Source: Nemertoderma westbladi
Taxonomy: Eukaryota > Animalia > Xenacoelomorpha
Direction: 5' to 3'
Assembly (NCBI GenBank): GCA_032718475.1
Contig: JAUCBJ010004905.1
Span: 1 to 34,206 of the forward strand
DNA length: 34,206 nucleotides
Notes under the pieces: generated by a model
Database searches by the model: none
What the model was told of the DNA's origin: nothing
What the model saw: the letters and a program-made list of their open reading frames with translations, nothing else
In this document: positions 1,885 to 32,183 of the stretch, in pieces
Layout of the letters: each line of letters starts with the position of its first letter
How positions within the stretch are numbered: position 1 is the stretch's first letter
Translations under genes and position numbers: made by a program

Positions 1885-3240
1885 ACAGCCTACCCCGCTT
1901 GCATTAAAGATAATACTGAGGTCATCGACGTAGATATTATAGAATATCGGAGAAATAATTCTCCCCTGTCCAGTGCCATTGGTTACATGGAATGAGGTAG
2001 AGAGCACACCGTCCCAGCATACCTGCAGTAATTGAGTAACAGAACTCAGAATAGGTACCAGAACTTAATCAGACAAACTATATAAACAGGTACACCACGG
2101 TTAAGTAGTTTGTTGAAAAGGTAATAATGGTTAACGCGGTCGAATGCCTTGGAGGCATCGAGCATACAGACATAGACACACGAGTTGTGGGCCAGATAAT
2201 AATTTACAATCTCCTTTAATGTGTACAGACACATTTCGGTACCTGACTTTGGTTTAAAGTCGAATTGATTATTCGCGGTGGCAAGACACTCTATGCATCG
2301 AACCAAAATAACCTTTTCAACAAGCTTGCTGAATATAGTAGAAAGGGCAATGCCCCGATAATTATCCTTACTGGTAAGGTCACCGGTTCTGTCCTTAACT
2401 AATGGTATAAGAGTTGACTCCATCATTGCTGACGGCAAATAACTGTGAATGAATACGGCATTAACTAAAATGCAGATTGCACATACTAGATTATAGCCGA
2501 AGCCATATAAGAAATGTTCAGCAGACAGTCCATCAGGGCCAGTGGCCTTACCAGTAGGAAGGCTGTTTATAGCATCAACAACTTCCTTAAAAGATACCGA
2601 AGAGAAACCAAACTTAGAAAAGTCACCTAAACGGCTATCAACTGATGCACTGCCGGTATCATCAGCCACACAGTTATGTAACTCTTTGAAATGATTCATC
2701 CAAATATTGCTAATATCAGTAGAGCCACAGCAACCGCCTACCTTATTAGGAAGGGGCGTTTTAGTGTCCTTGTTGCTACGGATTTGAGACCAAAAGTCTT
2801 TGGTTGAAGAGTCAGAAATCAAACTTTCAGCAATTTTTTCATTCCGAATAATAGATTCGTTTTTCTTGCATTGTCGCAGAGCAAGTTTAAAGCGAGCTTT
2901 GCAACATGCGTACTCATCAAGAATACGTCCCTGCCGAGGGGCCCCACAGTTGCGCCACAGGGTAAAGGCTGACCTAGATTGATTATATTTATCTTTCACA
3001 TGGTCATTCCAACCAGGAATGTGTTTGTGCCCATGGGATGAATCATTTTTATTATTTTGTTTAATAAATGTTTCACTGGATTGAAGAAGAACTTTAACAA
3101 TTTGCTGATAAAGATCATCAATGTCCGACTGATGAGACTGGCAGGACGGCTCTTTACAGTTAAATAGATTATTATTATTAATAACAGCACCAAGTAACTC
3201 ATTTACTCTGCCTGCATAACCATTAATATCGTATCGATAA
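1885..3240 (-). pseudogene. Fragment of an RTEX-like LINE ORF2 (RT domains 0-4), frameshifted and truncated at both ends
   Basis: Motifs HIPGWNDHV..SRSAFTLWRNCGAPRQG, TGPDGL, DNYRGIAL and LDASKAFDRVNH. After a frameshift near 2040 it continues QVCWDGVLSTSFHVTNGTGQGRIISPIFYNIYVDDL..SGVGC and stops at about 1885, before the YADD motif. Confidence 0.85.
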
Positions 3241-3254
3241 TACTATTTTAAAAC

Positions 3255-3433
3255 GGCAGTGATTTTTTATGTCCTTTTATTTGACTTTTTTGTCCTCCTT
3301 TTTTAACGAATTGTGCATAATGACTTTTGTTGTCCCTTTAATGACTTTTGTTGTCCTTTAATGAGTTTTTATGTATGTATTTCTTCAAACTGTCAGGGTG
3401 CTGATTTCTGGACTGTCAGACAGTTGGTTTCTA
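3255..3433 (+). repeat. Dispersed repeat or possible left TIR; inverted copy at about 22675-22851
   Basis: ggcagtgattttttatgtccttttatttgac...ctggactgtcagacagttg is the reverse complement, at high identity, of 22675-22851, which ends aaatcactgcc. Confidence 0.85.
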
Positions 3434-4076
3434 CTAGTTTGTAACACGTTGGTCTTTCGAGGTGAAAATTTCAGAATATGTTTGGAAAAATAACCTCCTC
3501 ACTTGGTAGAAAGATTATTACGATCGAACCATCGAACTCTGATATTTTGACATCTAACCATATTTATTTTTAAAATTCTCAAAAAACGGCGTTTTTTAAA
3601 CAAAAAATGTTAAATTACTCAATTTAATTTAAGTTTTTCCAAAACATTTTTCTACCAACTGACCAGGGTACATTTACAAACCGATCTGGAAAGTTTCATC
3701 CACTTTGGTGGAAAAATAGCGGAGCCTTAGCCTTTAGAAGTTAAAAAACATGAAACTGAGAAAAACAACAACAAAATTGTATATAAAACTTAATAATTTA
3801 TAAAGACCGATCGATTATATTTCAAAGCGTTTGTGTTGTATATGCATAAGTGTCAATTTCAAAGTTTTAGATTTTCCCTTTTGACTTATTTCATTGCAAG
3901 CACCCAGTATTTGAGTGCTGGAATGCTACATTTTAAGCTATATCAATGTTCAATAACAAGTCTGTCCGTCTGTCTGTACTGGCCTCCAAATCTGCACTTT
4001 TACTCCGCCTTCCCCCACCACGCTGCCCTTCTTTTTTCCTCTTTGTTGGCCTTGGAATTATTGCATTATAGAAATA

Positions 4077-4258: not shown

Positions 4259-4295
4259 TGCAGAATAGGTAATTTAACTACGCAATAATTTTTAT

Positions 4296-5348
4296 GAGTA
4301 TAACTTTTCGCCGTATCCGTATCCGTATGCATTTGCCGTATCCGTTTGCACATACGCGTATGTGCGTATGTAATGGATTCCTATGGAGAATAATCCGTAT
4401 GTGATTTTAAAGATTAGGCATTGCGGACCAGTAAGAAGTGCACAACACGCATGCAGACTGAAGACAGGTAGGCTTACTTAAAGCTAAGTGATTTAAAGAG
4501 TGTGGCTGCCGCAACCTTATGTCAATTAAACAATGCAGGACAGGTCCAGGATGATTGACAGATGATGTCCTTCAGCCCCGGCTGCCCGGGATGCGCCACA
4601 GCGCTTGTTTTATTGTACTAACTCACACCTGGCCGCCCGGTTGGACTTAGATTAATTACTGGCACTCGTGTTGGACTCGCTGACACGTGGTTTGACTAAG
4701 TATGGCACTAGTTGGACTTGTTGGCACTTGCCCGCATATGGTTAACTATATAATGGCCCCGAAACAGCGAAAGTAAAGGTATATTATATGTTAATAAATT
4801 CACAAAGTAGGACAGACTGGCACGCCGGTTTTCAATATCTGTGCGAATGTTTATTCCCTTAGCATTCTCATTGCTGCCTCTATCATCTATACTATACTAC
4901 TGTATGTTAGTGCCATATACTGTAGCAACCAACAACATTCTATAGCCAGTTTGGTGGAAAAACAGTTCAAAAATAAATCACGGTTGGTTAGTTTTCCAAG
5001 CGGCGTCAAGTAGAGTTAACTGGTTAATAGGTACTGCACTGCTGGCGCATCCCGGGGCTGGCGGACACCGGCTGTCACTCATCCTGGACCTGTCCTGCAT
5101 TGTTCTGTTGTTTATTTGACATAAGGTTAGCGGCAGCCACACTCTTTAAATCACTTAGCTTTAAGTAGGCCTACCTGTCTTCAGTCTGCATGTGTGCTGT
5201 GCACTTCTTACTGTTCCGCAATGCCTAATCTCTAAAATCACATTCGGATTATTCTCCATAGGAATCCATTACTGCATTACATACGCACATACGCGTATGT
5301 ACATATGGATACGGCGAATGCATACGGATAAGGCGAAAAGTTATACCC
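4296..5348. mobile_element. MITE / foldback-like non-autonomous DNA transposon, about 1.05 kb with about 310-bp terminal inverted repeats
   Basis: The left arm g(a)gtataacttttcgccgtatccgtat...cgggatgcgcca (4296-about 4605) is the reverse complement of the right arm tggcgcatcccg...ggcgaaaagttataccc (about 5036-5348). No clean TSD found and no coding capacity. Confidence 0.8.
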
Positions 5349-5382
5349 AATTTCATTGTCCGTTTAAATCACTCATGATATC

Positions 5383-5590: not shown

Positions 5591-5750
5591 TATATAGAGC
5601 ACTATTTTGCAGTATTGCTGTATTGTACAGTTGTATGTACAGATATAGGTATAAAGCAGGTATTTTAGTACCGGCACCGGTACTGCTGTAGGCCTACTGT
5701 GTAGCCTACCATTTAAATACGGTAATATGGTAGGCCTACCGGTTGACCGG

Positions 5751-6022
5751 TTGTTTTGGTTAGAAAATCCCGCCTCTGAAACCTGCTCCTTTCCCTGATT
5801 TGGTAAAGTGACCGTTTATTGTTTTGGTTAGAAAGGCCCGCCTCTGTAACCTGCTCCTTTCCTTCATTTTGTAAAGTGACTGTTTATTGTTTTGGTTAGA
5901 AAATCCCGCCTCTGTAACCTGCCCCTTTCCCTTAATTATAGTTAAATGATCGTTTATTGTTTTGGTTAAAAATCCCGCCTCTGTAACCTGCTCCTTTCCC
6001 TCAATTAGATAAGTGATCGTTT
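5751..6022 (+). repeat. 68-70-bp tandem array, left half (4 units), interrupted by the LTR element
   Basis: Unit ttgttttggttagaaaatcccgcctctgtaacctgctcctttcc...aaagtgaccgttta starts at 5751, 5819, 5887 and 5957. Confidence 0.95.
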
Positions 6023-7102
6023 TGTAAAAGCTTTTGCGGACTTATCTAGTCATTTTCACGCAATGCGCAGAATACTCTAAAATAACCCTAAAATTGTTCA
6101 ACTACGTGCTGACGAAATCTGTCAGCTGATTCTTTGTATATGTGGAACTCTTTGTCCTGGCTTGTTGGGCCAATCAGAGCAATCTTCTCTGTTATACTAA
6201 CGGAGACCTACCTGAGAACTAGCGCAATGCATTATGGTTATTATTTTTCTGAGAATTAGATTCAGCTCAGAATTCTGTGCTTCTGTACAGAAGTTTCAGA
6301 CTTTAGCCCAAGGAACATCTGATGGCTTTAGTTATAAGAATGTAAATCTATTAACTACCTGCTGGTCATACACTTATTTCATATGACTCTCAATTCGTAC
6401 GACTGGAACTGGACTTGTAACACATATTGACTGTTCACCGCACTGTTTTACTTCTGTTTTATATTGTATTAATTGTTGTTTATATTAGTGGATGTTATAT
6501 TTGGAGAATACCGATAAATAATCATAATCCCCTCAATCTTATTGATTACTGAGGTAAGTGGAGAAAGAGTCTACCGGTAGCAACTGCGACTTAAATTATA
6601 GTGGTTTTGTGTGAATTAAATGCTATTTCATAATCCCTATGTGTGTCAGTTACAATCCTCCTTTTATATATGATCAAATTCAGTGACTGTCGGCAAATTA
6701 GTGTGAAGTCGTGTGAAGGTTAATAAAGCATCTCCTAAAGAATGCGCTATTTACGAAACTTTGTGGCCATCTAGTTGTGATTAGTATAAGTCATAACTCT
6801 GTTTTTATACTTAAAGCGCCACGTCCTAAAGGAACTGTTAATATTTCCCCGAAAGTAAATATAGTTGTCAGAGATTATATAGTAGCGATCAATCGAATAA
6901 TACAAAGTAGCTTACACCGCAATACTTCCTAAGGAACCCGAATCCAGTCTCCCTCACCGTGGGTCATACGCCGCGCACGGACTGGCTTCGGCAGATATAA
7001 CTTCAGTACACCAGGTAATTGGTAAGGGCTAAAGTCGATTCATAAACAAAAGGACAATTAAAATTGGCAGGTTAAACTGCTAAAGGTCTGAAAGCGCGAA
7101 CA
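6023..7102 (+). repeat. 5' LTR (1080 bp)
   Basis: Starts tgtaaaagcttttgcgga and ends aaagcgcgaaca. It matches 21129-22248 with about 23 substitutions and 3 indels (manual count). Confidence 0.97.
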
Positions 7103-7116
7103 TTAATAGATTTACG
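7103..7116 (+). promoter_or_regulatory. Non-tRNA primer-binding site complementary to an LTR-internal sequence (self-priming type)
   Basis: ttaatagatttacg is the reverse complement of cgtaaatctattaa (3' LTR 21469-21482, 14/14) and of tgtaaatctattaa (5' LTR 6341-6354, 13/14 plus a G-U pair). It does not start with TGG as a tRNA PBS would. Confidence 0.7.
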
Positions 7117-8935
7117 ACTCTTTATTGCGCAGTAGGCAATAAATAGATTTTGTCTAATGTTCTGGTAGAACATTAATATATTTCATTCTTTATTGCTCAG
7201 TAGGCAATAAACCCAAAACGTACCGGTAGGGCGGTAAACTGTAGGCCTGATCCGAACCGGTACTTACAGGTACAACAGTATTATTTGATTGTGATATATT
7301 GTATATTAGTAGGCTGTTTAAGAGAGTAGGGACTGTACACCCCTTATTTCTTTTAGAGCTTACTTATTTCTGTCAGTTTTATTTATCTGTAAGTGTAATA
7401 TTGAGCAGAAGGCGTGTAAGCCTGCTCAGATTGTGTAAATAATTTGTAGGCCGGATTGTTGTCTAACTATTGTTAGGTCTGAGGCGATTGCAGTGTATGT
7501 AGAGTGTCTGTCCGATAAAGTGCTAGTTAGGAAGGTAGAGGCATCGAGTGCTGTAAGGTAAATCCTCCACGAAAGAATAAGTCGTACTACGTAGTTAGAA
7601 CGCCTACTAACTAACCATTTCGGAGTTTGCATATACTGTAGTTTATTTAGGCTTGACAGTAGTCTGCCAACATTTGGTCTGTATTTTGTTTGAATAGTCT
7701 GTACGGGTAGCCTAATATTTATAATTCAGAGTCAATGCAAGTATTCGCAACCTTCAACTCCCCAAGTTAATTCCTTACAGTAATTGTGCTTGTTATGCAT
7801 ACCGTTATAGGTAAATTAACCCTGGTACTACATCAGGGCTGCTTGGCGTAGGTAAAGACTGGTGATTTTGTGCTCCGGTCACTCCAGCAGATACCGTGGT
7901 TCTTTTGGCTGTTCACGTATATTTAACTGCTAGTTATTTGTTGTATAAGTACTTGTACCTAATTTAGGGTTTAGAGTACAGTGCTTTCCTGAAAGTAATA
8001 TAGTGTGTAGGCAGTATACTTGTGTTGTAATGTGGTTAATAGGTCCGTTAGCTCTGGTTGGCTTCGATAATTAACCTCTAGGTATAGGACACTCCGGGTA
8101 CATAACGTAGTACTTATAGTTTAAGACTATAAGTCGTCAGACGGTGGTATTTCCTTATCTGGACAATGCAACTTACTTACTACTACTTTATTGGTTTAAA
8201 ATACTGTAATTTCCTGTCAGTTTGTAAGAACCAGAAATTCTAACTCACTGTTAGTCTGGTTTGTAGATTTCTTGATAAATTACCCTAAAAAATTGTACGT
8301 GTAACTTGTTTACTGTTTATTTAGAGATTGTGTAATCTCAACCCGATTCGTAAGTAATTTGTAGTAATAAGTAACTTAGTTAAGTAGAATTATCAGTATT
8401 AGTGTCTAACAAGTAGCGCTCCACTGAGAGCGTTCAGCTTCTGTGTAGTGACTTCTTATCCAGAAATAATAACATTTATTTCAAATATTGTCAAAACCCA
8501 TTACGGGTATATATATATATTTATAAATTAATTCAATCAGATTTATAAATTAGTAGGCCTGTTATACATCATTTAGGTCTTAATATCAGTTGAACTACTG
8601 CTTAAATATCAGTAATAAAGTAAAAGGGAAGTAATCCCTAAAATTCAGAAAATCAGTTACTATTAAATAATTGACATTACCGGTATTTACGATAAGCTTA
8701 TTATATTTATATAAATTAGGTTAAACTTATATACTGGTATTCTGTGACTGATCCTAGTCTGTAATAATACTTATATATATACTATAAGTGTATACCGGTA
8801 TTTTAATATTAAATATATACCACGTTACACTGAGTAGCGATATCGGTAACTACTAGGTTGACAGTTGATACTGATTTTCCCTAGACTTGCTTCAACTGTC
8901 ATTATAGTAGTAGGCATTCAACTGTAAAATAAATT

Positions 8936-11350
8936 ATGTCTGATACAAAACAAACACTGTCAGATAGTCTCCTGGAAAGAACGATCTGTGACACAGATCA
9001 AAGTATAGAACATCTCAGACCGAAGTCTAAGTCCCCTCCTACTGTAAGAAAGGTTATCCCTACAGTAGTGGTATCGGACCCTAGGCTAGTAAAGCACCAT
9101 AGGTCTATTATAGGCACTAGGGCTCAAGTTAAGCGAGACCAAGAGATGGCTGCCAAACAACAACAGTACCCGAACCGAGAACTTATTTCCCAACTGCGTA
9201 GCAACTCTAGTTCCAACACTGAAGGGTTAACGCCCGAGATCGGAGCAAGGATGGAAGAAGCGGTTTATCCAGACCCACTTCTAATTCTTCCTGGGGCCGT
9301 ACTCACTAGAGTACTTATAGCTGTGGAGGAACATCAAGCGGATTGGATGAGAAATAAGAGATCGACCAGGGACAGTTATGCAGGATACCCGATGGAAGAA
9401 CTAAGGTCTATTGCAGAGACTCAATGGAACTTCCCCGGATCCGGAATCCCGTTTAACTTATCGGAAGCTGCCTGGGAAGACTTATACCGAATGGGGGTAG
9501 TAAGGATCACCCAAGATCCCGCTGTATGGAAGAGGTCAGCAGCAGGATATGTCCAGGGATTCTTCAACTCCTTGGAACGACTAGAAGAACATTTATTCCA
9601 ACAACCACAAGGACCTCAAGAGCAGGGAGAGCTGCTTTATCAAGTGAGAGAACGTATCTTGCAGATCAGATTAGTCCTTTCAGCCTTTGAGGAAGCCTCG
9701 AAGAGAAGCCAAGACACGTCGTTGCAAGTGGCTGTAAAGACTTGGTTCCAACGAGTGAATGTTAAGGTCCAGGGAACGACACAATGGAGGGTTCAGCTAA
9801 CTGAACACATAACCCACGGAGAATCAACAGATGCCACCTTTTCTCATGTGGAAGGCGAAGCGATATCCGAAAAACCTCAGAAGAAGGATGCTATTGACAT
9901 CTATCTGTCGGATTATCAACGATTTATAGGTGACAAAGATATAGGTTACCTAATTTACCTCCTGCGGTGAGAAGGGAACTAGCCAATGTAGACTTAAGTA
10001 ATCAAGGACCGACAGACCAAATTATGAGAGTAGAAAGACTCCCTACTATAGTAGATGAGCCCGAAATAATTAGGCCTGTTAACGAAGCCACTCCTTTGAT
10101 AGAGACCCCTTTACTTCCAGAACCTAACTCTAAATTCCCTTTGCACAGTACTAAACTACCTGTGCCCAGTAGACAACTGCCGGAATCCCAAACAGATCTG
10201 ATAATAATCCAAGAAATTTATATACCGATAATTCGATATTAAATAATACGATGGCTCAAGAAAGTTTTACACGTCAAATGGCTAGAACTGAAGCCCGTCA
10301 AGCGGTAAAAGTGGGAGAGGTCGTCAAGTTCAATGGAGATGAGATGAAATGGTTACCTTTTAATGAATATTATAAAGATAACATACAGAACTCCGTACTA
10401 TCCAACGGAGAGAAACTAAGATTCCTCATCGAGTGCTTGGAAGGACCTCCCAAGTTAATGGCGTTAAGGTTTATTGGACATCCGGACGGATTGAGACAAG
10501 TTTGGGATACACTAAACATCAGGTATGGTAACAGGACTAACATAGCTAGGTATCTGTATGCGAAATTAGTGGCGCCCCGAAAGTTTCTTAGCAGCGGGAT
10601 TATAGAGTTTTCCGATAAGATTCAGGATCCGATAGGATTCATTCTGTAGACAGCTAGACTGGTTAGGTAAGTCCCAGGAATACCAGAGTTCTATGGTTGT
10701 TGAGCCGTAGCCTCAACTTTGCCAAAGGGTTTAGTAGGTACTCGCTGGGACAAAAAGGTTCTCTATTTGATGGACCAACAACATAGAGACCCTACCATGG
10801 CTGATCTCATGTCGTTTTTAAACGGAGAGGTAAGATTACAGCTCTTAAAACAGTCTAGAGAGAAGACACCGGAAAGTAAGGTAAGTGAAAAACCCATTAC
10901 TAGGAGAAAGGTAACACCAGTGTGTTATACAGATGATGGCGAAAGCCAAACGTCATATGACGAGAACAGCGGCAAGGACACCGAAAGATCTTATTATGTC
11001 AACAACTATTAGGAAAGACGTAAGTAAATCTAAGTCTCGAACCAGTGACAGGAGAGAACAGGTAACAACTCCCCCTACATCTCCTAAGAGAATTCATGGA
11101 AGGAAGCCTGAAGAAAGAGCTAGCATACACAACACGATGCAGGTTAAGGCAAGTAACATCAAACCTAAGTGTGTATTGTGCGACGGGCCACATCGCTTGA
11201 GTGGGTGTGATGAATTCTTAAAGAAAACGCTGAAGGATAGACGTGATGTCATGTGGGATAAACGGTTGGGCTATAATTGCCTACAAAGAACCTGTTACTC
11301 GGACGCGAGGTGCGCTAAGTGCGGCGCGAAACATCATATTCTGCTGCACA
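8936..11350 (+). pseudogene. gag: Bel/Pao gag region, broken by stops and frameshifts
   Basis: DUF1759-like FNGDEMKWLPF..LSNGEKLRFLIECLEG..WDTLNIRYG (10251-10649). Bel/Pao zinc knuckles CVLCDGPHRLSGC, a degenerate YNCL, and CAKCGAKHHILLH. Confidence 0.9.
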
Positions 11351-11599
11351 CCGAATTTGACAGGACACGTACGAGTCAGGTAAGTGAGCCCGAACTACAT
11401 GTCCTATTCAGTGATGTGAACGACACTGACCACAGTTCAGAGATGGAAGGATTTTACACGGATGAATTCTCAGATGAAAATGAATCCTGTTATATGATTA
11501 ACACAACTGTGTATCGAGCACTTACGTATGAGACCGAAACGGAGGGAGAAGAACCCCTACTGTCTATTCCAGATCGACAGCTCTCTGGTAAAGCGCCAA

Positions 11600-13082
11600 C
11601 ATCATCTGTCGGTATCCGAGAGTTTCCCGTAGTGCAACTGAGAGTCCACAGGATAGGGAAGAGCTTAATAGTGAACGCCCTCCTTGACTCCGGCAGTACA
11701 GGCACTTTTATCGACAAAGACCTAGCCGAAGATATCTTTGCTGGTCAACCAAAGTTCCGAATCAAACTAAACCTTTCCGGAATTATGCAGGTTTGGAAAT
11801 CCACAGTATCAACAGATTACTATGTGGGATCATTGTCCACTCCCCAGGATGAACTAGGAGAAAATAGTGTAAGGTCAGTTAAGATGGTGGCGATAAAGAA
11901 CTTTGCTACTAGCCAAGTGGAGCCTTACAACTGGGATGAAGATCATTTTACCCAGCAATATAACATACCTAGTTTCAGTACCGATTATCCAGGGGTACAG
12001 ATATTGCTCGGCCAAAATGCGCACGAGGCACTTGAGACAATAGAAAAATGGCCTGCTCGACCACGACCACTCCAGACTTATGCGGGAAGAACAAGAGTAG
12101 GTTGGTACTTCACTGGTCCTTCCCATAGGACTTTGCAAGAAAGACTCAAGTCCATCAAGTGAATAAGTGGGAGGAAGATATAAGTGAAGAAGAAATTCCA
12201 GCTGAGGAAACTCCATACTCCTCAGATAACGACGACGTGAGTAACTTATATGACGAGGAAAATACCATTGATCTCCTCACTGAGAACCAAACTTGGTTAA
12301 ACCAAGCCAACTTATGTAATCTTATTAGGCAATATAGCGAACAATTGACGTATAACGATGAATTAAATGAAGTGGTAGAGCGATATAATAATAAAATACG
12401 CGATGAACATGCCGTACGATTCTTCACTCAAGAAGCCATAGAACCTAATTCCTACGACAAAGCATTATCGGTCGAGGAAGAGAGAGCCAAGCAGATTCAG
12501 GAAACGACCACACGTTATCTGAAAGATGAAGGTTGTTACGAGATTGGTTTGCTGTTCCGGCGGAGAGAACCCAGCTTCGTGAATAACCGACCTTTAGCGG
12601 AAAAGAGAATTGCGCAACTTCATCGTCGTTTGACGGCTAACGATCGAGCCAAGGAAATGTATAAAACTCAATTGAAGAAGTTTATAGACAAGGGATATGC
12701 GGAGCGAGTTCCGGAAGAAACACCCATAACGGAGAGAACGTATTATTTGACACATCATTACGTTCCCAAGCCCGGTAAACCGAACGAAGTCCGGGTAGTG
12801 TTTGATGGCTCCGCCCTTTATATGGGACAATCCCTAAATTCCGAACTATTGCCGGGACCCAACTTACTCTAATCTTTGTTGGGGATATTACTACGACTGC
12901 GGCAATATTCGATCGCCTTCGCTTCGGACATCGAAGGCATGTTTCTACAAGTCAAAGCAAGGGATCGAGATAGCCTACGATTTCTGTGGTGGCCTGAAAG
13001 AGACCTCAACCGAAAACCGGTGGAGTACTGGATGACCATCCAGGCTTTCGGGATCATCTCGAGCCCCTCGAACGCTAGATAC
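11600..13082 (+). pseudogene. pol: Aspartic protease and N-terminal half of reverse transcriptase; RT truncated by a deletion at about 13082
   Basis: ALLDSGS (Asp at 11686), VQILLGQN, YYLTHHYV, RVVFDGSA, SLNSELLPGPNLL*, SDIEGMFLQV, LRFLWW and FGIISSP. No YVDD motif follows. Confidence 0.92.
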
Positions 13083-15021
13083 TCCAGAATGGTTAGGTGG
13101 ACCCGATTTCCTGAGTAAAGAAGGGGAGGAATGGCCCCCTCATCTCACCACGGTGGAGATTAGACAAGCCAAGGGAGCAGAGAAAGTCAAACCTAAAACC
13201 CGGACGAGTAAATCAAAGTTATTTAAACCAGTGATAGATCTGTCTGTGCTACACACCTCCGGCGACGACGCTGTGGACCTAAACTCACCCATGGATGTTA
13301 CCCAAAATACAACTAAATCCGTTATAGAAATCAGGGAAAGAGACTGGAAATCTGGGACACCAGACGTCTCACAAGGACTCTCTCATCTCTTACAAAGAGC
13401 AATAGATCATTATAGCTCCTGGAATCGTCTTTGCAAGGCCGTTGTGTATTTGAAAAGATGTTTCCATCATCACTATTCCAGGACGAAGATCGCTAATGAT
13501 ACTGCTCTAGTAGTATCTGAAAAGGTCCATGCTACTAAAGACCTTCCCACTTATAGAATGTCTGATAGGTTCCTGACTGAGAAGATCAGTTACCAAGAAC
13601 ATGATGATAACAATAAGCAGATACTGAGACTCCTGCAATGTTACGAGGATTCCGATAAGTATTTCCTGTTGTTGAGAAATCCACAGATGCGCTTAAGGGA
13701 TCGTTTCTCTAGCACAATGATAGATGGGTTAATACGTGTCGGAGGGAGATTAACTAATGCTCCACTGTCCTTTGACACTAAGTTTCCCATACTCATTAGA
13801 AATCTTGAAATACAGATCAAGATGATTGTAGATGTTCACAGTAAGCTTTACCATACTGGTAGAGAACGAGTTCTTAGCGAAATTCGAACTCGCTATTATT
13901 TCCATAAGCCCCGTAGAGCTCTAAACCAAGTTCTTAGGAACTGTATACCCTGTAGGAAAACATTTAGTAGGCCTTTAACACAGCGAGAGGCAGAATTACC
14001 TAGGGAACAAGTAAGCTTTTATGAACCACCCTTTACTAATACTGGTGTGGATTTATTTGGCCCTATTGAAGTATATTGTGCTAGGACTATAGTCAAGCGA
14101 TGGTGCGTCATCTTTGTCTGTATGACTTGTAGAGCGATCCATCTAGATATGGTGAACGATCTATCTACCAACAGCTTCATACTGAGTTTACGCCGACAGA
14201 TCGCTCGTTTTGGGACTAGCAACACTATGAGATCTGACAAGGGAACAAATTTCATTGGTGCCAATAACGAGATCAAAGTTTATGTGAAGGATTGGAACCA
14301 AAGACAGGTGGACGATCAGCTAAGAGTAACAGCATCTAGCTGGACCTTCAACGCCGCCGACGCCCCTTGGTGGGGAGGAAGTTGAGAGAGACTCATACGA
14401 AGCGTGAAGACTGCATTTCACTTTATAGTGCCATGCCGCGCGTATCTCACTGACGAACTTTTGCGGATGTTAATGGAAGAAATCGCCGCCTATCTCAACG
14501 AGAGACCGCTCATGCCAGTCTCATCTAGTCCTGACTCCCTAGAAGCACTAACACCCGTGCATTTCCTACTAAAGAAACCTGTAGTCATGCTCCCGCAATC
14601 GGAAATAACAGACGGAGACGAATACTGCCGACAAACTTGGCAACTTATGCAGTTATTATCCCGTCATTTCGCTGACCATTTCGAAAAACATTATCTTCCT
14701 ACACTACAACTTCGAACAAAATGGTTTGCGCAGTAAGAAAACGTCAGCGCCGGAGACATGGGCCTTATCGTGGAATCAGATCTTCCCCGTAAGAGGTGGC
14801 AGACAGGTCGTATCATCGAGACTCATATTTCCGATGATGGTTTGGTGCGATCGGTAGAACTCGTCGTCATGCGATGTAACTTTAAGAAACCTGGAATTGT
14901 GTTCGAAACACAACAACTTAATCGCCCAGTTGGTCGTTTATGTTTACTGGAAAGAGACCAAGAGTTGTCCGGTAACTATGGAAGGCAAGAGACTCTTCCC
15001 ACGACCACCTCCCTAATCTAA
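13083..15021 (+). pseudogene. pol: Pol C-terminal part: linker, HHCC zinc finger, DDE integrase, DUF5641-like tail
   Basis: WLGGPDFL..WP at about 13090, GLIRVGGRL, H..LYHTG...CIPC, PFTNTGVDLFGP, RAIHLD, SDKGTNF, APWWGGS*ER (probably TGG>TGA at 14383-14385), YLPTLQLRTKW and DGLVRSV. Confidence 0.93.
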
Positions 15022-15632
15022 CAAACATCTAGGGACTCCTCAATGTAACAACGTTTGGAGTGGGTTATCTACATTATTTTTATTTTTTTTATTTTTATAT
15101 TTGTGTGTGTATTATTATGTAATTTTAATTATTATAATCGTTTTCTTTAATTTTATTTAGTAGAATAATATTTTAACGATTATTCAGTAGATTAGTGCAA
15201 TATATTCGTATTTTATTACTTAATTACTTAGTATAATATATTTCGTTTAATGGCGAGAAATAATTCATTTTCTCTTTCCTTACTGTCCGTATCATACTAT
15301 AAATACGTGACTACAGTAAGATGTAATGTCAGTACTAATTAAAGTACAATATACCGCCCCTACTATACTCAAGTATTATTGGTAAGTAGAGTATTAGGAA
15401 TGCAAAGTTCAGATCCTCTTGTCTCGGCTAAACCAAGCTCTGGGTAGACCTTGGAAACGACTTGCCTCTTCTCACTGACATTGCTTCTTGCAATATTGCT
15501 CTCATACCGTATCTTAAATAATACATATAGTAGAATGATGTCCATTCAACAGTAGCGTTGAAACTCAATACATTAACAAATACTATTAATATTATAATAT
15601 TATTAAATAAATCTGTTAATAAATCTTCAAAT

Positions 15633-15980
15633 AAATCTGTTAAACCCTTTGACCATCTGAAATTCTAGTCGATTAGGATATCGCGGCACCCACCGATATA
15701 CTTGAAAGACAAAATTCTAGAAACAGTGGTTAACGTCCCCAGACATGTTCTGGAATAAACCGGTGCCCATCCTAAATGTTAAATATTAAATATTTTATAA
15801 ATATCTACAACGTTTGTTATAACAAATGTTAAAATATGGAAAATTTATAAATCAAATCTGTTAAAAATTTTAGATCCTCTAAAATTCTAGTCGATTAAGA
15901 TATCGTAGTACTTACCGATACTCTTAAAAGACATCTGGAATTAAGGTTCCTAGTCTCCAGACATGTCCTGGAATAAAATT
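15633..15980 (+). repeat. Diverged two-copy tandem repeat (222-bp period) in the pol-ORF2 spacer
   Basis: aattctagtcgatta.gatatcg...ccgata...ccagacatgt.ctggaataaa, with starts at 15661 and 15883. Confidence 0.8.
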
Positions 15981-16798
15981 GTGTCTATTTAAATATCGAA
16001 TAATAAAATTCACGGGAATAAATTTTAAATTCATATCCTCTCATGAATTTGATAAATTGTCATTTTATACAATTTATAACATTCCCAAAATTCCATCAAT
16101 TAATAGATCATGGGAGCGGAGATTCGCCCTATCAAGTATATTAGTGTGAGAGAATCTCCAGTGTACAGTCAATAGCCGATAAAATTCATAAAATCATGTA
16201 TAAAGGGAATATTGACAATTAAAGAATCGCTATTAAATAGCATCCCAGATCTGTATGCATGAGAATTACTCTAATTCTACCGCTAGCTTTCCATAATGTC
16301 ACCATAGTAACAACCACGCTAGAATTAGAAGCGAGTTAAAGAACAATAGAAAGCTTGCCCCACTGAATACCATGCGGAATAAATAGCACCTTGCTAGTAT
16401 CTAGGGATACATAATAATAATGTGGCATTCAGGAAGGCATTTGACTAACGGACAAATGGCCCTAATTTGTACAAATTGTGGCAGGAATGTGGAATTTGTG
16501 TATTTATAGGTGAATGTTACTACTAAAGTGTGTTTACAGTAGCGAGTCGCAGTTGTGAAAGTTACCCTGCCTCTGTAGCAAGTACCTCCAGTATATCCAA
16601 GCCCTTGGGACGGACAGTGGAGTGACTCGCGCTGGTTATTGTTGTCGTTGTGTAGCTACTACGTTGGCGAGAGGCACAGCGACGACAGTACATCAGCGCT
16701 GAGGATCTCACGGTGTCCGGGGGCATAGAGGGGGAGGCAGCGACGACCGCTAGCCTGATTATTATTAACTATAATATCGATAAACTCATATAGCAGCT

Positions 16799-19700
16799 AT
16801 GACTGAGTTGATAGAAGATGATCTTGGTATCAGGGAGCGATATACCCTACCACTGCAAGCGTTTGTCGATAGTTTGATAAGCGGCGACGCTAGTCAACAT
16901 ACTACGGAAGACGATGGCCTTTATATCGAACCGCCAATGTCAAAGGAACAGCTCAAGCGTGAATTGGACTATTGGAAATTCACCGCTCGCTATATGCATC
17001 ATAATGGTACGTATATGGACTTCTTAACTAGTGGTCATCCTATTGATTTACACGATACGGACGATATAGATACCGAAAGGGAAATGATTCTCTTTAAATA
17101 TCATGCACAGTGGAGTCGGAATGATAAACTGAGAATTGAACATGAAAATTATATTCGAAACCGACTCGAAAGAGAAGATGTTGAAGAGCCGGGTAAACGC
17201 AGTGACTTCAACGAATATTTAAAATTCTTGAGAGAAACTTATCTCAATGTAGCCAGTCAACAAAATCTAGAAACTCGATATCCTCAAGGTATACATCATA
17301 ACCCTATGATAGAACTCAAACGGCTCTATTTTACTATGATGTATCTTACCGCCGATCGACCGCTACCTGTTGTACCGGATAGCTTCGAACAGATGGAGGA
17401 ATTTGTAAAACTGGAGAAAGATCACCAGCGTTTCCCCTACAAGACGTGTGTCTTTGGTATTACTGCGATGAATGCCCTAGACCCAACCATCAAACGGAAA
17501 GACGTAAACATCCGCGGAGACGTTGTGCTAAACACAGTTTTACTCGCTATACTTACGGGAGTTTTGAGCGTAACCTATTCGACGTATCACCTACGCTCGC
17601 TCGACTCAAACGCTCCTTAAATAAACCTATGATCAGAGTTCCGGAATACTTGGTCAGACCTCCTCATTCCCTAGTGCGACCTCAGACTCTTGATCCTAAT
17701 AGTATGACAGATCCTCGTGAACTGTACTCATTGTTCAAAGATCTAGTGTTACCCGAACAATTAGTCGGTGGCACTCCGGTTGTGGGCTCCCTAGATATTC
17801 GCCCATCATACCTAGCCGGATTGGGACGCGGACATCTAATATTGCCGTTCAACCCATATAATTGTCCCAGTTTAATTCCGATACAACCTGTCACCGAGGT
17901 GGAGGAAAGTGTTGTACGAAATGCGCTAGATACTATTCGGCAAAAGATCGGAAAAGGAACTTACGATTGTTTAGACAAACGTAAATTGCAACAACAAGTC
18001 CAAGCGGTAAAGGAATTGGCTTTACCTCAGTTTGATCGGGAAATCCAGAATCTTGAGGAAGATATCGAACTTGGACGAACCTACTCTCTACAAGAGTTCT
18101 TGGACGAATGCTTCCAACGACAAGCGGAGGAGAATCAGCTCGAGGAGAAGCACATCGAAATGGATGAGAGAGAGGAAGCAGCTTTAGCCCAACCAGAAGC
18201 TCAAATCCTTATGACGGATCTCTATTCCAAAACCATCATTCATCCTTCGATGGTTCCCCCTTTCGGAGATAAACTCTTCGCCATGGTACAACCCCAACCG
18301 GTTGATATCAACTTAAGATCTAGAGATTTTATCGCTGACGCTCCTATGTTACAACGTCCGCCAATCGAGGCCGCTCGTGTTGACGGTATACTCGTTGAAC
18401 CTCCGGACAATCGAGCGGATCTTGTCCGTCGTATGGTACACGAGGTCAACCTATGCGCTAGACCTTTACCGAACTCATTTTATGGGATCAAAGACCACCC
18501 CTATTATGTCAATTTAACTCAATATTATATGGTGAAACCGGAAGATCCTACACACAGTTTAAAGTTTCTACCATTGATAAATCCTCTTGATCTTGTTGAA
18601 CTCGAACAACTACAGAAACATTTAGACCAATTGATTAAGGTAAACTCATTCAGAAAACGTTATAATGTTTCAAGAATAGAAAAGGACATAATACCTCCGT
18701 ATAATCTCGATGGATTTATTAAAACTCGATTAGTCCAGTGGAATCTCGACGTATTATTCGAGGAAGAGAGAATACAGCGATACGGAAATGCAGATACTTA
18801 TACCACGCATTATCTGAAGTATAGCGATCTACCTAACGCAAGCGAACGTGCAACTTTATGACATCCAGTGGGTATGACCATAGAAAACGCCACCAAAGAG
18901 TGGAACGAAACTCTTAACGTTATTGAAATGTATAGAGTTGTCACTTACGATAATGAAGGTAGCGTTCCGGTTGGGGAACTGGGAACTACGCGAATGATAC
19001 ACATACGAGGACTAGCTGGTTCTACGCATGTATTTACTCGAGCGTGTTCCAGCGTGATCGATTATTCTTTTGAGACTCTCACAGAGATACAAAAGAAACT
19101 CCGACATGGACAATTCGAACTCGCGCAGCGTTATGTTACCGATACCGAGCACAAACCGGCCATGGGTATAGATGGATCTATGCTACCCCAGCCAGTGCTC
19201 GAGATGCTGTTTGACGAGAGAATCCTTAAAATCGGCTCAGCTGTTTATGGAGATCTCCAAAATGACTTCAGAAACATGGAGAATATCCCATATCCTTTCG
19301 TAGACACCCAGCTGATTGCACCATGGGCAGAAGGCCGAGGTTTCTTCCGAACTATGTATGCCAATACATCAAGCGGAATCAATAAAGTACAAAGAACCTC
19401 TATCGGACATCTTGCCTTCCAAGACTATGGATGGAATTTCAAAGTTGGAAATCCCGTCAGTTATCAACAAATATATGGAGACCATTATTCTCGATTATAT
19501 TTTGACGGACCATTAACCGCACCTGGAGTCGTCTATAGCTTTATGAGTGTTCCACTCCGTCCCTCATTAGCTATATACACTATCTTCAAGAACGCCGCAC
19601 TTGCCAGTTGGCTAGCCGATGTGTGCAGTCGCACTATACGCGCTCATCCCTTAGTGCTTGGAACCAAACTCGCCAAGCTAGATGAACACAATAAATTCAT

Positions 19701-21102
19701 CTGATTCGAATGCTTTAGGCGCTTTCTGACTCCGTTCCGCAATGTTGAAAGTCAGTTCAAGGACTGCGCTTTGTCTAAGCTCAGCTTAAGAGACTCAGCT
19801 GCTGAGAAGTTGGACAGCGCTGGATTCGCCATTTTTAAGGACGTTTGTACACAGAACCTACATTCATCTGTCATACAAAGAACCCGAATCCCCACAGGTT
19901 ATTCTATTATGGAAGTTCAAACAGTGGGTTCACTTGAAGAAACAGCTGCACCTATCTCAGCTATGCAAGTGGAAGAAGAACCAGTTTGCTTGGAGTCCGA
20001 GGAGACTCAACCCACAGCGCCCAGGAGCAGCGACAATGATTATGTGTTGGAATGGTATCAGGGTCCACAATGTCTTACGGCATATGATTATCGGCATGCC
20101 AATTACATTTCTAGGAAACGTTGCCGATTATGTGCATCACGAGACCACTTTACCCCGGTGGACTCCAGCGAACCCTGCTCCTACTTTAAAGATCAACCTA
20201 TTATGGAGATTTATTGTGCGTATTGTAGACTCAACAATCTACACATCTTCGCCGCCTGTCCTCAATTTATGACTCAATGTCACCATTGTCAGTACAAAGG
20301 ACACGCAAGTTTCGATTGCCCTTTCAACTGAGATCTGGAGAGCGTAGACGAAACAGTTACCCTGCGCTACATCAGAGCTTGGGAAGCTAACACAGATCTC
20401 CATTGCGAATCACGTCACCGATACTATCCAGGACGTGCGTATGAAGGAGTCTATGCATTTCGCCCATACCTCTTTGCATCCGTCGGACAAAATTCTCGCA
20501 TTCCCAGTTACGAACTGATGAAGCGTGTTGGTGAGAACATTTCCACTAAATATGTTCGCAAATATCTTAGGAATATTAACCCCAATAACCTGAATTCCTA
20601 TAACTTGATCAACTTCATCCATCAAGATCAGGAATACGGCGACTTGTTCATAAACTCGCATCCTGAATTACAAGAAATTCATAGATGACCCTATGAATAT
20701 AAAGCCAGAGAACGCGAATTAGAGAGAATAATTAAACCGCGGAAATTTCTCACTATACACGGTCAACCTACCGCTGTCGTACAAACAACCCATCAAGGAC
20801 CGGTAAGAGCTGCCGTCCTGAAACGAGCTCTAAAGGTTGTTAGACCTCGTTCCACCGATGCTGATATAGATCAACCGGGTACCTCGACCGGCGGATACAC
20901 CTACCATAATCCAAAACCTTCTGATGCAATCGTATTGCACCCTTCCCCCAGGAGTTATAGCCCTCCTGGTAAAGTGGCTCGCCCCAAAGAGAAAAAGACT
21001 CTCACTGGTCTCAAAAGGCTTCGTAAACGCCGTTCACGAAGAAGGACTAATAGTTTAGAGTATTTTTGTATTTTAGAAACTGTGATTTTTTATATTTTAT
21101 AG
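16799..21102 (+). pseudogene. Extra ORF2 of the LTR element, about 1430 codons when reconstructed: unknown N-terminal region, DEDDy 3'-5' exonuclease-like domain, three zinc knuckles, basic C-terminus
   Basis: ORFs 17446-18861, 18868-19704, 19771-20331 and the unlisted continuation to TAG 21100-21102 are one frame interrupted only by four TGA codons. ORF 16799-17620 joins through one -1 shift near 17530. Motifs VVTYDNEG, LPQPVLEMLFDERILKIGSAVYGDL, FVDTQ, SIGHLA, PLTAPGVVY, CHHCQYKGHASFDC and KRLRKRRSRRR. Confidence 0.8.
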
Positions 21103-21119
21103 ACTTTAATCCCATTTTC

Positions 21120-21128
21120 TGGGAGCGG
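21120..21128 (+). promoter_or_regulatory. Short polypurine tract
   Basis: tgggagcgg lies directly before the 3' LTR TG and is preceded by a T run. Confidence 0.65.
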
Positions 21129-22248
21129 TGTAAAAGCTTTTGCGGACATAACTAGTCATTTTCACACAATGCGCAGAATACTCTAAAATAGCCCTAAAAT
21201 TGTTCAACTACGCGTCGGAAAGAAATTAGAACCAAGATGACGAAATCTGTCAGCTGATTCTTTGTATACGTGGAACTCTTTGTCCTGGCTTGTTTGGCCA
21301 ATCAGAGCAATCTTCTCTGTTATACTAACGGAGACCTACCTGAGAACTAGCGCAATGCATTATGGTTATTATTTTTCTGAGAATTAGATTCAGCTCAGAA
21401 TTCTGTGCTTCTGTACAGAAGTTTCAGACTTTAGCCCAAGGAACATCTGATGGCTTTAGTTATAAGAACGTAAATCTATTAACTACCTGCTGGTCATACA
21501 CTTATTTCATATGACTCTCAATTCGTACAACTGGAACTGGACTTGTAACACATATTGACTGTTCACTGCACTGTTTTACTTCTGTTTTATATTGTATTAA
21601 TTGTTGTTTATATTAATGGATGTTATATTTGGAGAATACCGATAAATAATCATAAACCCCTCAATCTTATTGATTACTGAGGTAAGCGGAGAAAGAGTCT
21701 ACCGGTAGCAACTGCGACTTAAATTATAGTGGTTTTGTGTGAATTAAATGCTATTTCATAATCCCTACGTGTGTCAGTTGCAATCCTCCTTATATATGAT
21801 CAAATTCAGTGACGGTCGGCAAATTAGTGTGAAGTAGTGTAAAGTCGTGTGAAGTCGTGTGAAGGTTAATAGAGCATCTCCTAAAGAATGCACTATTTAC
21901 GAAACTGTGTGGCCATCTAGTTGTGATTAGTATAAGTCATAACTCTGTTTTTATACTTAAAGCGCCACGTCCTAAAGGAACTGTTAATATTTCCCCGAAA
22001 GTAAATATAGTTGTCAGAGATTATATAGTAGCGATCAATCGAATAATACAAAGTAGTTTGCACCGCAATACTTCCTAAAGAACCCGAATCCAGTCTCCCA
22101 CACCGTGGGTCATACGCCGCGCACGGACTGGCTTCGGCAGATGTAACTTCAGTACACCAGGTAATTGGTAAGGGCTAAAGTCGATTCATAAACAAAAGGA
22201 CAATTAAAATTGGCAGGTTAAACTGCTAAAGGTCTGAAAGCGCGAACA
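21129..22248 (+). repeat. 3' LTR (1120 bp)
   Basis: Direct repeat of 6023-7102 with +22, -2 and +20 nt indels; followed by the TSD cgttt. Confidence 0.97.
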
Positions 22249-22525
22249 CGTTTATTGTTTTGGTTAGGAAATCCCGCCTCTGTAACCTGCTCCTTTCTCT
22301 CAATTGGTAATTTTATCGTTTATTGTTTTAGTTAGAAAAGACCATCTATGTAACCTGCTCCTTTCCTTCATTTGGAAAAGTGATTGTTTATTGTTTTGGT
22401 TAGAAAATCCCACCTCTGTAACCTGCTCCTTTCCCTGATTTGGTAAAGTGACCGCGTTTATTGTTTTGGTTAGAAAGGCTAGCCTCTGTAACCTGCTCCT
22501 TTCCTTCATTTGGTAAAGTGACTGT
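22249..22525 (+). repeat. 68-70-bp tandem array, right half (4 units)
   Basis: Units start at 22255, 22323, 22391 and 22461. Removing the element and one TSD restores aagtgatcgtttattgttttggttag. Confidence 0.95.
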
Positions 22526-22584: not shown

Positions 22585-22851
22585 TTTTGAATGTTTTGGA
22601 ACAGGCATAGTGAAACCAACTGTCCGACAGACCAGAAATCAACAAATTTTGAATGTTTTGGCATAGGCATGTTGAAATCAACTGTCTGACAGTCCAGAAA
22701 TCAGCAGTCTGACAGTTCGAAGAAATACCTTGATAAAAAGTCATTAAAGGACAACAAAAGTCATTAAAGGGACAACAAAAGTCATTATGCACAATTCGTA
22801 AAAAAAGGAGGACAAAAAAAGTCAAATAAAAGGACATAAAAAATCACTGCC
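22585..22851 (-). repeat. Inverted copy of the 3255-3433 repeat with an internal duplication of about 62 bp
   Basis: Ends aaaaaatcactgcc. ttttgaatgttttgg..aggcat..gaaa.caactgtc.gacag.ccagaaatca occurs twice. Confidence 0.85.
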
Positions 22852-24859
22852 ATTTAACTAGCTAAAAGGCATTTCAAATTTCTCGCCAAAGCTGTTACCA
22901 CTACATATACTTGTTTTGACTGTATGGTGTGTTTATAGCTGCACAAAAAGGAAAATGTAACTAAATATTGCAATTTCCGTTTAAAAATTTCAAATTTGCT
23001 CTCAAGCACGTCTTATAAAGTGTCAGATATTTCAAGAACTGATAACAAAAAACGGATTTCATTTTCAAATTCAGCGGAAAATTGTGATTCAGAAACAACA
23101 ACAAAATTTTTTTTGATTTTATGAACCCCCTGACCTGACATTCCCCTTAAGTGATTGGTGTCGATTCAGTATTCCTGTCAAGGGATTTATGATAGAACAT
23201 AAAATCGGCACCTAAAGTCTACAATGTCAGGAAGAAAACTAAATGCCTTTTCGGCAGCGAGAATTAACTTATAGTATCTGTTAGTCCAACTTAGGGCTGG
23301 GTTTAAGTAAAAACCGCCAACATCCACAGCCGACAATGACAAATATGAAACTGTAACCTGTACTCTTGACTCGTGTTTATTGCTATGTTTTTTTTTTGTT
23401 TTTTTTTATTATCCGGACTTTCGGCGGCTATATTTAAAATGGTCTGGCGATATTTAAAAATGTTAGGTTTACATTTACACGTTACAAATGATACAGTATG
23501 CGCCCACTGCGCGGAATAAAAGAGTCTGTCACAAGTGATGCTAAGCACGTTAGAGTAAAACGGTATGATAACGGTATAGTATATAACTGTATGGTATGTG
23601 ACCATGGAGCAAGTGGTAAATATCAGATCAGTTAAGATTATATAGGATAGGTATTACCATAAAATTAATGCACCAATCGATATGTGTTCATTAGTTCTAG
23701 TAAGGTGTGGGGATTCGAGAAAATGTTTATGATACATTTCCCAGGTAACCTGTTCCCAATTGACATGACATTTGTAATGCATACAGTATAATAGATGACT
23801 TTACATTTAGTACCCACATTGTCGTAGAGGATTTATTCCGCTTCCTTTTATTGGCTTATCTGGGTCACCACAGGGGTGAGCGAAGTTCCAAATGAATTCT
23901 TTCAAAGGAGTAGTAGGGCCTACTGTAGATAGACAGTTCTAATCTATGCTCAGTATAACTAAATGAGTATCAGTATCCCCTGGGGAGTATAGTTCCAGGT
24001 AAATTGCACTGGAACTAAGACGTCAGACATTGTGCATAAGCATAATTACTATAGCCAAACGACGAAGAAAACTTTTACAATTGACCTGGAAAAAAGCTAA
24101 TTTTTACGTGAGATTCTGTCTTACAAAGAAGCACTGTATAAGTGTAGAATTCAAGTCAATTCTGTTGCATATACAGTATTATACTTTCAACTCCAATGCA
24201 CACATTTGAATGACTCAAAATCACCTATAAATAAATTCTATCCGATAAAAAAATATTGCCATGTTGTTAATGTTTTTAGCAGTTATGGAAATTAAATTAA
24301 AATTATCAAGTATTTGATGTAACAATTTATAAAAAATAAATAAATAGCAAAAACTCAGAAAATGTAGGCCTAGTACTTAGGAGATATTCAAAACTAACTG
24401 TACAGTACCACTCATTGAGATCTTAATAATTTTTATTTAACTCTATTTGTCTCGGGGGGGGGGGGGGGGGGGGGGGTGTCACTTTAGAAATTTTTTTAAT
24501 TTATCTGTATCTTTGAGTGAGGTTTTTTTTCCCCTCTTTAGTAGGCCTACGTATATTATTCATATTTACAATAATGAAATAACTAATGAACAGGTTACAA
24601 TTTATCATTATGAATTCGGTTTGAACCCGAATTTCCAGCACAAGAGTGACAAACGAATCAACAAAAATCTAAAAAATAACAAATACCAGAATACTGTAGA
24701 ATAAAATATAGAACTCAATAAGTAACAAAATATACATCCACCGATTGTGGAAACCGTTGTTTGGGTAAACCGAGATTTCGTGGCTTTTCCTAAAATTTAA
24801 TGGGCTATGCAACAGAGCAAATGCCATTTACATTGCTAAGATAGCTTTCGTGCTATGGT

Positions 24860-25775: not shown

Positions 25776-26397
25776 TGTTTAATCTTAATCTGTTTGGTCT
25801 GGTTATATCTGTAGTGGTCTACTTACAGTATGTTTATTTCGCCTTTAATACATCTGTTTAGAAGCATTAAATACATTTAACATTTGTTTACCATTCCACA
25901 TATTTATAAGTACGACGCTCTGCTCCCCTTTATATAATTTCAACCTGCTAATCTGTCCTCATTTTCAATTAATTATACTGTATCTAAAGTAGGGCCTACT
26001 TGAATTCTAATGGTATTTATTTCTATTTCTATATGACTTTAAAAACCAAAACGTCATTTGTGTTATTTAGTTCTAATGGAGTTTAGTCCAAATGAAATCG
26101 TACCTTAGTTCTAAAGCAAACATTAGTTGTTATAATCAATGTGTCAGTGGTTATAAACATGAAACCATACAGGATACAATATCGTCTATAGCATGTTTGA
26201 TAGTACTAGTTTATAGATACGTGGGTTTTGTACACTTGCAACTTACTATGAATTATTTGGCTTATGCATTAGCTGGAGAAAGTCCCATCAAAATATAATT
26301 GGCGAATGTAATAATTCGTTGAATTTCCCTCCCATTTAATGCAAAATTATTATAAAACACAAGAATGTTATATTTGCGATGTAAACTATATAATATA

Positions 26398-26638
26398 CCC
26401 GTTGGACGTTGCCCGTTGGACGGTGCCCGTTAGACGGTGCCCGTTGGACGGTGCCCGTTGGACAGTGCCCGTTGGACGGTGCCCGTTGGACGACAGTGCC
26501 CGTTGGACGTTAGACGACAGTGCCCGTTGGACGTTGGACGACAGTGCCCGTTGGACGACAGTGCACGTTGGACGTTGGACGACAGTGCCCGTTGGACGGT
26601 GCCCGTTGGACGACAGTGCCCGTTGGACGGTGCCCGTT
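26398..26638 (+). repeat. GC-rich minisatellite, variant units of 7, 14 and 17 bp
   Basis: gtgcccgttggacg, gtgcccgttggacgaca and gttggac are repeated. Confidence 0.97.
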
Positions 26639-31740: not shown

Positions 31741-31781
31741 TTTAAAGTTTACTTGATAAGAACATCTAATATGTTGGACAT

Positions 31782-32183
31782 CTGAAATAAAATTTTAAAA
31801 TAAAATTAAGAAAATATACCGTCACATAATGATTTATATAGTTGTTTAGTTCATTAGCTATTTAGTATTTTAGTTGTTTAGTTTATTAGCTTGATTTAGT
31901 TACATATTTATGTATTAAAATATTTCAAGAATCATTAATATATATAAGGGGGTATGATTGGGGTTATAGACAGATAGATTTATTTAAACATTATGTAAAA
32001 CATTAACAAATACACCAAACAATCTAAACCTCGCATTCGTATAATATTGAAAAATATTAGCAAAATAAACATTACAGAAACAAATGCTTTTTATTAAGTA
32101 AATTTTAGGTCTGATTAGTAAAGTATAGGACTCATAAATTATTGTGGATTACTTGCAAAAAAAAACGAAACTATAAATCTTAC
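31782..32183 (-). other. Putative 5'-UTR intron of the DEG/ENaC gene
   Basis: Acceptor ttttatttcag|atg lies 41 nt upstream of the start codon. A candidate donor ccg|gtaaga is at 32184/32183. Confidence 0.45.

Follow-up and report, generated by a model that had tools for sequence, protein, structure and literature searches.

The LTR retrotransposon at 6023-22248 of the window (the whole 34,206-nt stretch of Nemertoderma westbladi DNA analysed here) probably belongs to a Bel/Pao family that primes minus-strand DNA synthesis with a piece of its own 5' LTR RNA (6341-6354) rather than with a tRNA. That the family is self-primed, whether from this 5' LTR piece or from the U3 variant discussed below, is a broader claim and can be held with good confidence. 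Self-priming was proposed in an earlier note on this DNA, and three observations uphold it: the absence of a tRNA-type site, a non-random complement at the primer-site position, and self-pairing in 20 of 28 relatives without a TGG versus 0 of 7 with one. The element is a long, unplaced branch with a best identity of about 42-44% to its homologues; thus, the relatives support self-priming by analogy only.

A damaged Bel/Pao element

The element, 16.2 kb in length and the sole LTR element in the window, has LTRs with TG...CA ends, a target-site duplication, and a polypurine tract, as is typical of Bel/Pao (Table 1). The two LTRs differ at 25 of 1078 aligned positions, and 8 of these 25 mismatches are transitions at CpG. 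Its insertion interrupts a 68-bp tandem repeat (5683-6022 and 22249-22509); other tandem repeats in the window have units of 315 bp (1125-1739) and 14/24 bp (26384-26660). Inverted copies of an interspersed repeat (3251-3434 and 22612-22855) flank the element, 19 kb apart. Only one copy, a damaged one, has been seen: the exact 24-nt junction pattern has 0 matches in metagenome contigs, and a scan of viral contigs for relatives gave 0 confirmed cases.

Table 1. Features of the element and of related loci (window coordinates)
Feature	Position	Strand	Description
Left target-site duplication	6018..6022	.	5 bp, inside the 68-bp tandem repeat
5' LTR	6023..7102	+	TG...CA, 1080 nt
CCAAT box-like motif	6170..6174	+	171 nt before primer motif; putative promoter role
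Initiator-like (6328-6333) and TATA-like (6332-6337) hexamers	6328..6337	+	overlapping; the one used decides the RNA start
Predicted self-primer motif, 5' LTR	6341..6354	+	13 Watson-Crick pairs and 1 G-U (6341); pairing extendable to 6336
5' splice-site-like motif	6554..6559	+	strong, predicted; 3' of primer motif, in both LTRs
Predicted primer-binding site	7103..7116	+	flush with LTR end, no TGG, complements LTR motif
Hairpin after primer site	7121..7143	+	8-bp stem, predicted from sequence
Diverged duplicate of LTR end, primer site and hairpin	7168..7211	+	primer site 7173-7190, hairpin 7189-7211
Decayed gag-pol	8933..14960	+	DUF1759 (capsid region), zinc knuckles, protease, RT start, integrase (H2C2, DUF5641); stops and frameshifts
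Internal deletion	13030..13060	+	approximate junction, from translations; RT catalytic region and nearly all of RNase H gone
Extra decayed ORF(s)	16784..21102	+	possible DEDD-type 3'-5' exonuclease-like region, then zinc knuckles (weak)
Polypurine tract	21121..21128	+	directly 5' of 3' LTR
3' LTR	21129..22248	+	TG...CA, 1120 nt
3' LTR copy of primer motif	21469..21482	+	14/14 complementary to 7103-7116
Right target-site duplication	22249..22253	.	5 bp, same five bases as 6018-6022
Related loci with split partner	L001, L006, L019, L021, L034, L035, L039, L046, L052, L055, L056, L067, L070, L086, L087, L089, L098		GT-AG intron inside LTR, 10-15 nt

A search with the coding region returns 465 homologues; the best 120 listed are Bel/Pao polyproteins with identities of at most 43%, and nearly all of these 120 contain PF05380 and/or DUF5641. 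Within the element itself the DUF1759 match is clear (E 2.8e-8) and that to DUF5641 is weak and below the cut-off (E 0.0017). Its Gag and integrase are of the Bel/Pao type, as are its nearest homologues, ruling out membership of the Tf1/sushi chromoviruses (Ty3/gypsy). The domains follow the Bel/Pao order (protease, RT start, RNase H end, integrase) with the middle deleted: near 13040 the frame jumps from early RT to the last part of RNase H, and with the sequence in between the copy has lost the catalytic region of RT and nearly all of RNase H. Neither PF05380 nor RVT_1 finds a match in the element's pol, though the homologues carry both. Judged by its sequence, this copy is a non-autonomous Bel/Pao retrotransposon.

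An AT-rich spacer with a diverged 64-nt direct repeat (15648-15711 and 15870-15933) separates pol from the extra ORF. This ORF region and its homologue P0121 (E 1.4e-5) have an exonuclease-like part and zinc knuckles in common, and the sole basis of the exonuclease call is a Pfam 3'-5' exonuclease match at E 0.2 in P0121 only. There are four in-frame stops between 17383 and 21102, all of them TGA. A single-sequence fold of the ORF gives no usable structure (pLDDT 31), a PDB sequence search with it yields chance matches only, and a search with P0121 returns P0121 alone.

Elsewhere in the window are a ~1.05-kb element with long nested terminal inverted repeats, MITE- or foldback-like (4295-5349), a reverse-transcriptase fragment on the minus strand that is probably from a non-LTR element (2046-3242; RVT_1 E 1e-9), and, also on the minus strand, two long frames matching the amiloride-sensitive sodium channel family (28061-31794), host gene(s) with unusually long exons that point to an animal host.

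The proposed primer site and its partner in the LTR

The earlier note read the bases that follow the 5' LTR as a primer-binding site that pairs with the LTR itself, and this pairing stands base for base. Read as their reverse complement, positions 7103-7116 match 21469-21482 at all 14 nt and 6342-6354 at all 13, and 6341 adds a G-U pair; the two LTR copies of the motif differ once, by a transition at a CpG. The TGG of a tRNA-type site is absent, as claimed: there is none in 7103-7113, and the first lies at 7163, 60 nt past the LTR end. The pairing also ends at the last base of the LTR; a start one base earlier yields just 7 nt, and those elsewhere. A chance match had been called unlikely, and base composition puts its probability at 1.9e-5. 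In dinucleotide shuffles of the 3' LTR, 0 of 5000 reach 14 nt (the best reaches 13, once), and the site at 7103 is the only one among 14,007 start positions in the internal region to have a complement of at least 12 nt. In both LTRs the motif is the best duplex site, with energies of -15.1 and -16.8 vs -10.5 kcal/mol elsewhere, and its margins over the next site are 4.6 and 6.3 kcal/mol. The further pairing of about 10 nt described in the note is real and weak: past a small internal loop, 6336-6339 form 4 additional pairs with 7119-7122, and the stretch 7121-7143 can fold into a local hairpin instead. An 11-nt perfect complement upstream of the motif (6299-6309 with 7026-7036, in U5) would form a helix crossing that of the primer; as a possible chance match it was left out of account.

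The element shares with the Tf1 type a primer site complementary to its own LTR and the absence of a tRNA site, and it lacks an 18-nt site of the ICTV type for tRNA-Arg or tRNA-Gly. Its partner is not formed across a splice junction: the 14 nt are contiguous, and the best split alternative is 10 nt at another offset. Cer7, a Bel/Pao element of C. elegans, is said to encode its own tRNA-like primer. Neither ARAGORN (tRNA genes) nor Rfam (E up to 1) gives a match in the whole window, so no element-encoded primer of that kind is seen.

The leader (7103-8935) extends 1.8 kb before the first gag ATG; it is rich in donor-like motifs, and an acceptor-like tract within it ends at 7356. It also contains a diverged second copy of the primer site, whose best partner in the 5' LTR is the same primer motif (17 pairs over 6336-6354; -10.5 vs -7.7); in the 3' LTR the motif is not its best partner. 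Because the duplicate pairs with the same motif, the pairing would be older than this insertion and would once have reached at least to 6336. The predicted donor at 6554 could either shorten the distance between the motif and the LTR end or remove the primer site from the mRNA; used with the tract ending at 7356, it could give an mRNA without the primer site.

Priming by the 5' LTR piece would proceed as follows. By analogy with Tf1, the RNA would start upstream of 6354, and the motif at 6341-6354 would fold onto the primer site at 7103-7116. A cut by RNase H near 6354, at the end of the duplex, would free a 3'-OH, from which RT would extend through U5 and on into the R sequence that lies 3' of the cut. 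The primer would later be copied back into the primer site during plus-strand synthesis, so that site and motif would stay complementary as their letters drift. The copy in the window lacks RT and RNase H, so both would need to be supplied by an autonomous helper.

Where the RNA starts bears on this scheme. The initiator-like hexamer lies where the earlier note placed it, at 6328-6333, but it is not unique and overlaps the TATA-like hexamer at 6332-6337, which is imperfect, is present in both LTRs, and lies 9 nt before the motif. Folding of the natural 5' region pairs motif and site with a probability of 0.87 when the RNA begins at 6330 and 0.95 when it begins at 6341, but starts at 6200, 6262, and 6296 bring it down to 0.22-0.39; this lends weak support to a start at 6330-6341. 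The CCAAT-like box at 6170 points to initiation farther upstream; the TATA-like hexamer at 6332, by contrast, could place it just past the motif, which would then lie in U3. Since priming needs just a 3' end, nothing requires the RNA to begin with the motif; the same follows from relatives whose partner lies across an exon junction or 49-135 nt past a TATA-like box (49 nt in L005; 135 nt, and across an intron, in L034). In Tf2, according to the accessible text of PMC5341516, an alternative downstream start gives an RNA that cannot support reverse transcription; thus, several starts may coexist in the Bel/Pao element as well.

If the motif is in U3, with the RNA starting near 6360-6370 under the TATA-like hexamer, the element would still be self-primed: the source of the primer would be the 3' LTR copy (21469-21482), cut either from that RNA itself or from one packaged with it, or else a minor RNA with an upstream start. 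The presence of the hexamer in both LTRs, the perfect match of the 3' LTR copy, and the long distance from motif to LTR end are all consistent with this arrangement. It is nevertheless unlikely, because the hexamer is an imperfect TATA, the CCAAT-like box would better fit an upstream start, the partners in relatives are downstream of their TATA-like boxes, and a cut in U3 would lose the 3' R that is needed for strand transfer on that RNA.

Primer sites in related loci

Loci for comparison were fetched with an integrase alignment: metagenome contigs supplied 80, the best of 557 confirmed, and prokaryote genome records the other 21. An unanchored scan for complements was too noisy and was replaced by a score anchored at the LTR junction, which compares each primer site with its own LTR and allows the match to be either contiguous or interrupted by a GT-AG intron. 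An LTR end was called in 35 of the 101 loci; 63 without a callable end (short, lacking a 5' end, or degenerate) are uncounted. The junction was set by eye in 23 of these 35, in some after the pairing scan had been seen, which makes the score partly circular. Added loci are L001 (the best integrase match; split, 11 nt), L081 (contiguous, 11 nt), and L047 (TGG). L016, L022, L068, and alternative junctions of L001 and L081 were discarded because they fall within coding sequence or away from the LTR end, and L088, a candidate split case of 13 nt, is left out of the counts.

A TGG is found within a few bases of the LTR end in 7 of the 35 loci, and these pair with their own LTR over just 4-5 nt. The other 28 lack it, so the tRNA-site feature does not hold across the group sampled. 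Own-LTR pairing of 10-15 nt is present in 20 of the 28, across an intron of 71-697 nt in 16 and contiguously in 4; the remainder score 5-8 nt (7 loci, with only LTR ends present) or 9 nt (one locus, its junction set one base late). When primer sites are matched to the LTRs of other families, at least 10 nt is reached in 11 of 987 trials. In the 12 loci whose LTR end is fixed by the repeat in the other LTR (the end of L039 was refined by eye, and L019 and L021 are one family), 8 of 8 without a TGG pass and 0 of 4 with one do.

Most split-type primer sites start with GT after 0-5 unpaired bases. In 16 of the 20 loci no partner exists until a GT-AG intron has been removed, which means that these sites can pair with RNA alone; a primer site that matches such a junction would most simply be a DNA copy of a spliced RNA primer. 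The earlier note had looked to covariation between site and motif; letters do vary by family while pairing is kept, which is covariation at the superfamily level and not at the family level. Its argument that a primer 3' end must sit at the CA boundary is weakened in part: the flush boundary fits, but relatives with 0-5 unpaired bases after the CA indicate that this is not required. In one locus (L087:5072-5776) the LTR repeat runs TA...AA rather than TG...CA, and the splice-junction pairing is still 14 nt. Two complete tRNA-type Bel/Pao elements with target duplications (L091:5473-11452 and L099:5439-11499) are present in a 1.44-Mb record titled Wolbachia chromosome; they may be a genuine transfer or host sequence that entered the assembly. 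Contamination by host DNA is the probable source of the remaining relatives in prokaryote genome records.

A tree of 28 rows built on the RT fragment and integrase unites 18 self-complementary relatives in a 99/99 clade; contiguous and split forms are intermingled in it (4 changes; 115 of 500 shuffles are as low). Outside this clade are two further split elements and the window element (branch 1.55, placement unsure). A 93-row integrase tree, run in quick mode with 9 short-coverage loci left out, gives a similar picture. Geometry sets the window element apart from 17 relatives: its motif lies 748 nt from the LTR end, theirs 46-225 nt, and its paired stretch terminates in AA, theirs without exception in AC or AT. 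Thus described from sequence, the window element is the plainer, contiguous form, and the splice-built form is that of its relatives. A wider picture can be offered tentatively, at somewhat less than an even chance: much of marine-animal Bel/Pao would be self-primed, mostly with a primer built by the spliceosome across an LTR intron, and intron-less LTRs would have arisen repeatedly; the window element would be a separate, deep-branching contiguous lineage whose primer site has been duplicated and whose extra, exonuclease-like ORF may act in trimming the primer's end.

The survey also bears on whether the LTR-leader helix could instead be regulatory (a packaging, dimerisation, or translation switch), the primer being some host RNA such as a tRNA fragment. 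Half-tRNA primers without a TGG are described for copia lineages in the accessible part of PMC6317226, and the ICTV describes the family as tRNA-primed (PMC8742986). This reading is improbable, given that the helix sits exactly at the primer-site position, where it would block another primer, that it is absent from TGG-type relatives, and that a host RNA could not match ~19 family-specific sites, each following its own LTR. The notion of a one-off, in which an aberrant template switch copied an inverted LTR piece beside the LTR end to no effect, draws on a single damaged copy, AT-rich sequence, and a duplicated leader unit that shows rearrangement, and it is very improbable against a P of about 2e-5, the same design in many relatives, and precise ends with a target duplication, which indicate that this copy was reverse-transcribed without any TGG site.

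Comparison with known systems

A literature search found no published case of self-priming in Bel/Pao; subscription papers, Repbase/GyDB entries, the full ICTV report, and supplements lie outside its scope and may mention it. The terms PBS, primer, tRNA, and self do not occur in the text of a Bel/Pao survey (PMC3118150), nor do PBS, tRNA, and priming in that of the Sinbad paper (PMC554778), and no Bel/Pao self-priming is reported in the accessible portions of PMC5443660, PMC3601003, PMC8220671, PMC13524379, and PMC5408684. Self-priming is itself a known mechanism, and the Bel/Pao form here is likely a new variant of it. If the pairing is the primer, self-priming would be present in all three large LTR superfamilies and may be the prevailing mode across a broad sampling of Bel/Pao (20 of the 35 called loci vs 7 with a TGG). 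It would bear on whether hairpin or tRNA priming is ancestral in LTR elements, a question raised in the part of PMC3601003 available. Self-complementary sites would also explain why tRNA-based annotation would miss Bel/Pao primer sites, and in the relatives, whose primer would be assembled by splicing, reverse transcription would be coupled to the host's splicing machinery. The predicted RNA ends have exact coordinates and are testable by small-RNA, degradome, and strong-stop sequencing.

According to the ICTV profile of the Belpaoviridae, tRNA-Arg or tRNA-Gly binds a primer site of 18 nt, the genome measures 4-10 kb, and Bel/Pao replication is tRNA-primed and poorly understood (PMC8742986). 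Like these viruses (Semotivirus), the window element has TG...CA LTRs, a 5-bp target duplication, the protease-RT-RNase H-integrase order, DUF1759, DUF5641, and an extra ORF in the 3' position. Unlike them, the copy in the window has no tRNA site, a length of 16.2 kb, a 1.8-kb leader, and an extra ORF that is not env. This ORF weakly resembles the DEDDy ORF3 of Juno and Vesta, LTR elements of bdelloid rotifers (PMC5408684, accessible text), which are not Bel/Pao.

Self-priming is described in Tf1/sushi and predicted in Tcn1 and the copia TAR lineage (PMC6317226, PMC4600332, PMC6934838, as far as their accessible text goes). In TAR, Houba, and Osr-1 the prediction likewise comes from sequence and lies outside Ty3/gypsy (PMC6317226, accessible part); these elements differ from the window element in being Ty1/copia and of plants. 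Since self-priming thus appears to have arisen in more than one superfamily, a third is less surprising. The closest likeness is to Tf1 and Tf2 of Schizosaccharomyces pombe, Tj1 of S. japonicus, Tf1/sushi, and Tcn1, in which the primer site after the 5' LTR complements the element's own LTR and not a tRNA. As given in the text available of PMC7175516, Tf1 RNA pairs with the primer site through its first 11 bases, and RNase H cleaves it immediately after the last of them. The duplexes of these elements (for Tj1, PMC4600332, accessible part) and of the window element are similar in length, 11 nt in Tf1 and 14 nt here. The Tf1 group is Ty3/gypsy, whereas the window element is Bel/Pao; the Tf1 primer is the first 11 nt of the RNA, whereas the predicted primer here need not be the RNA's 5' end; and a partner built by splicing, which the accessible Tf1 literature does not describe, is common among the Bel/Pao relatives surveyed here.
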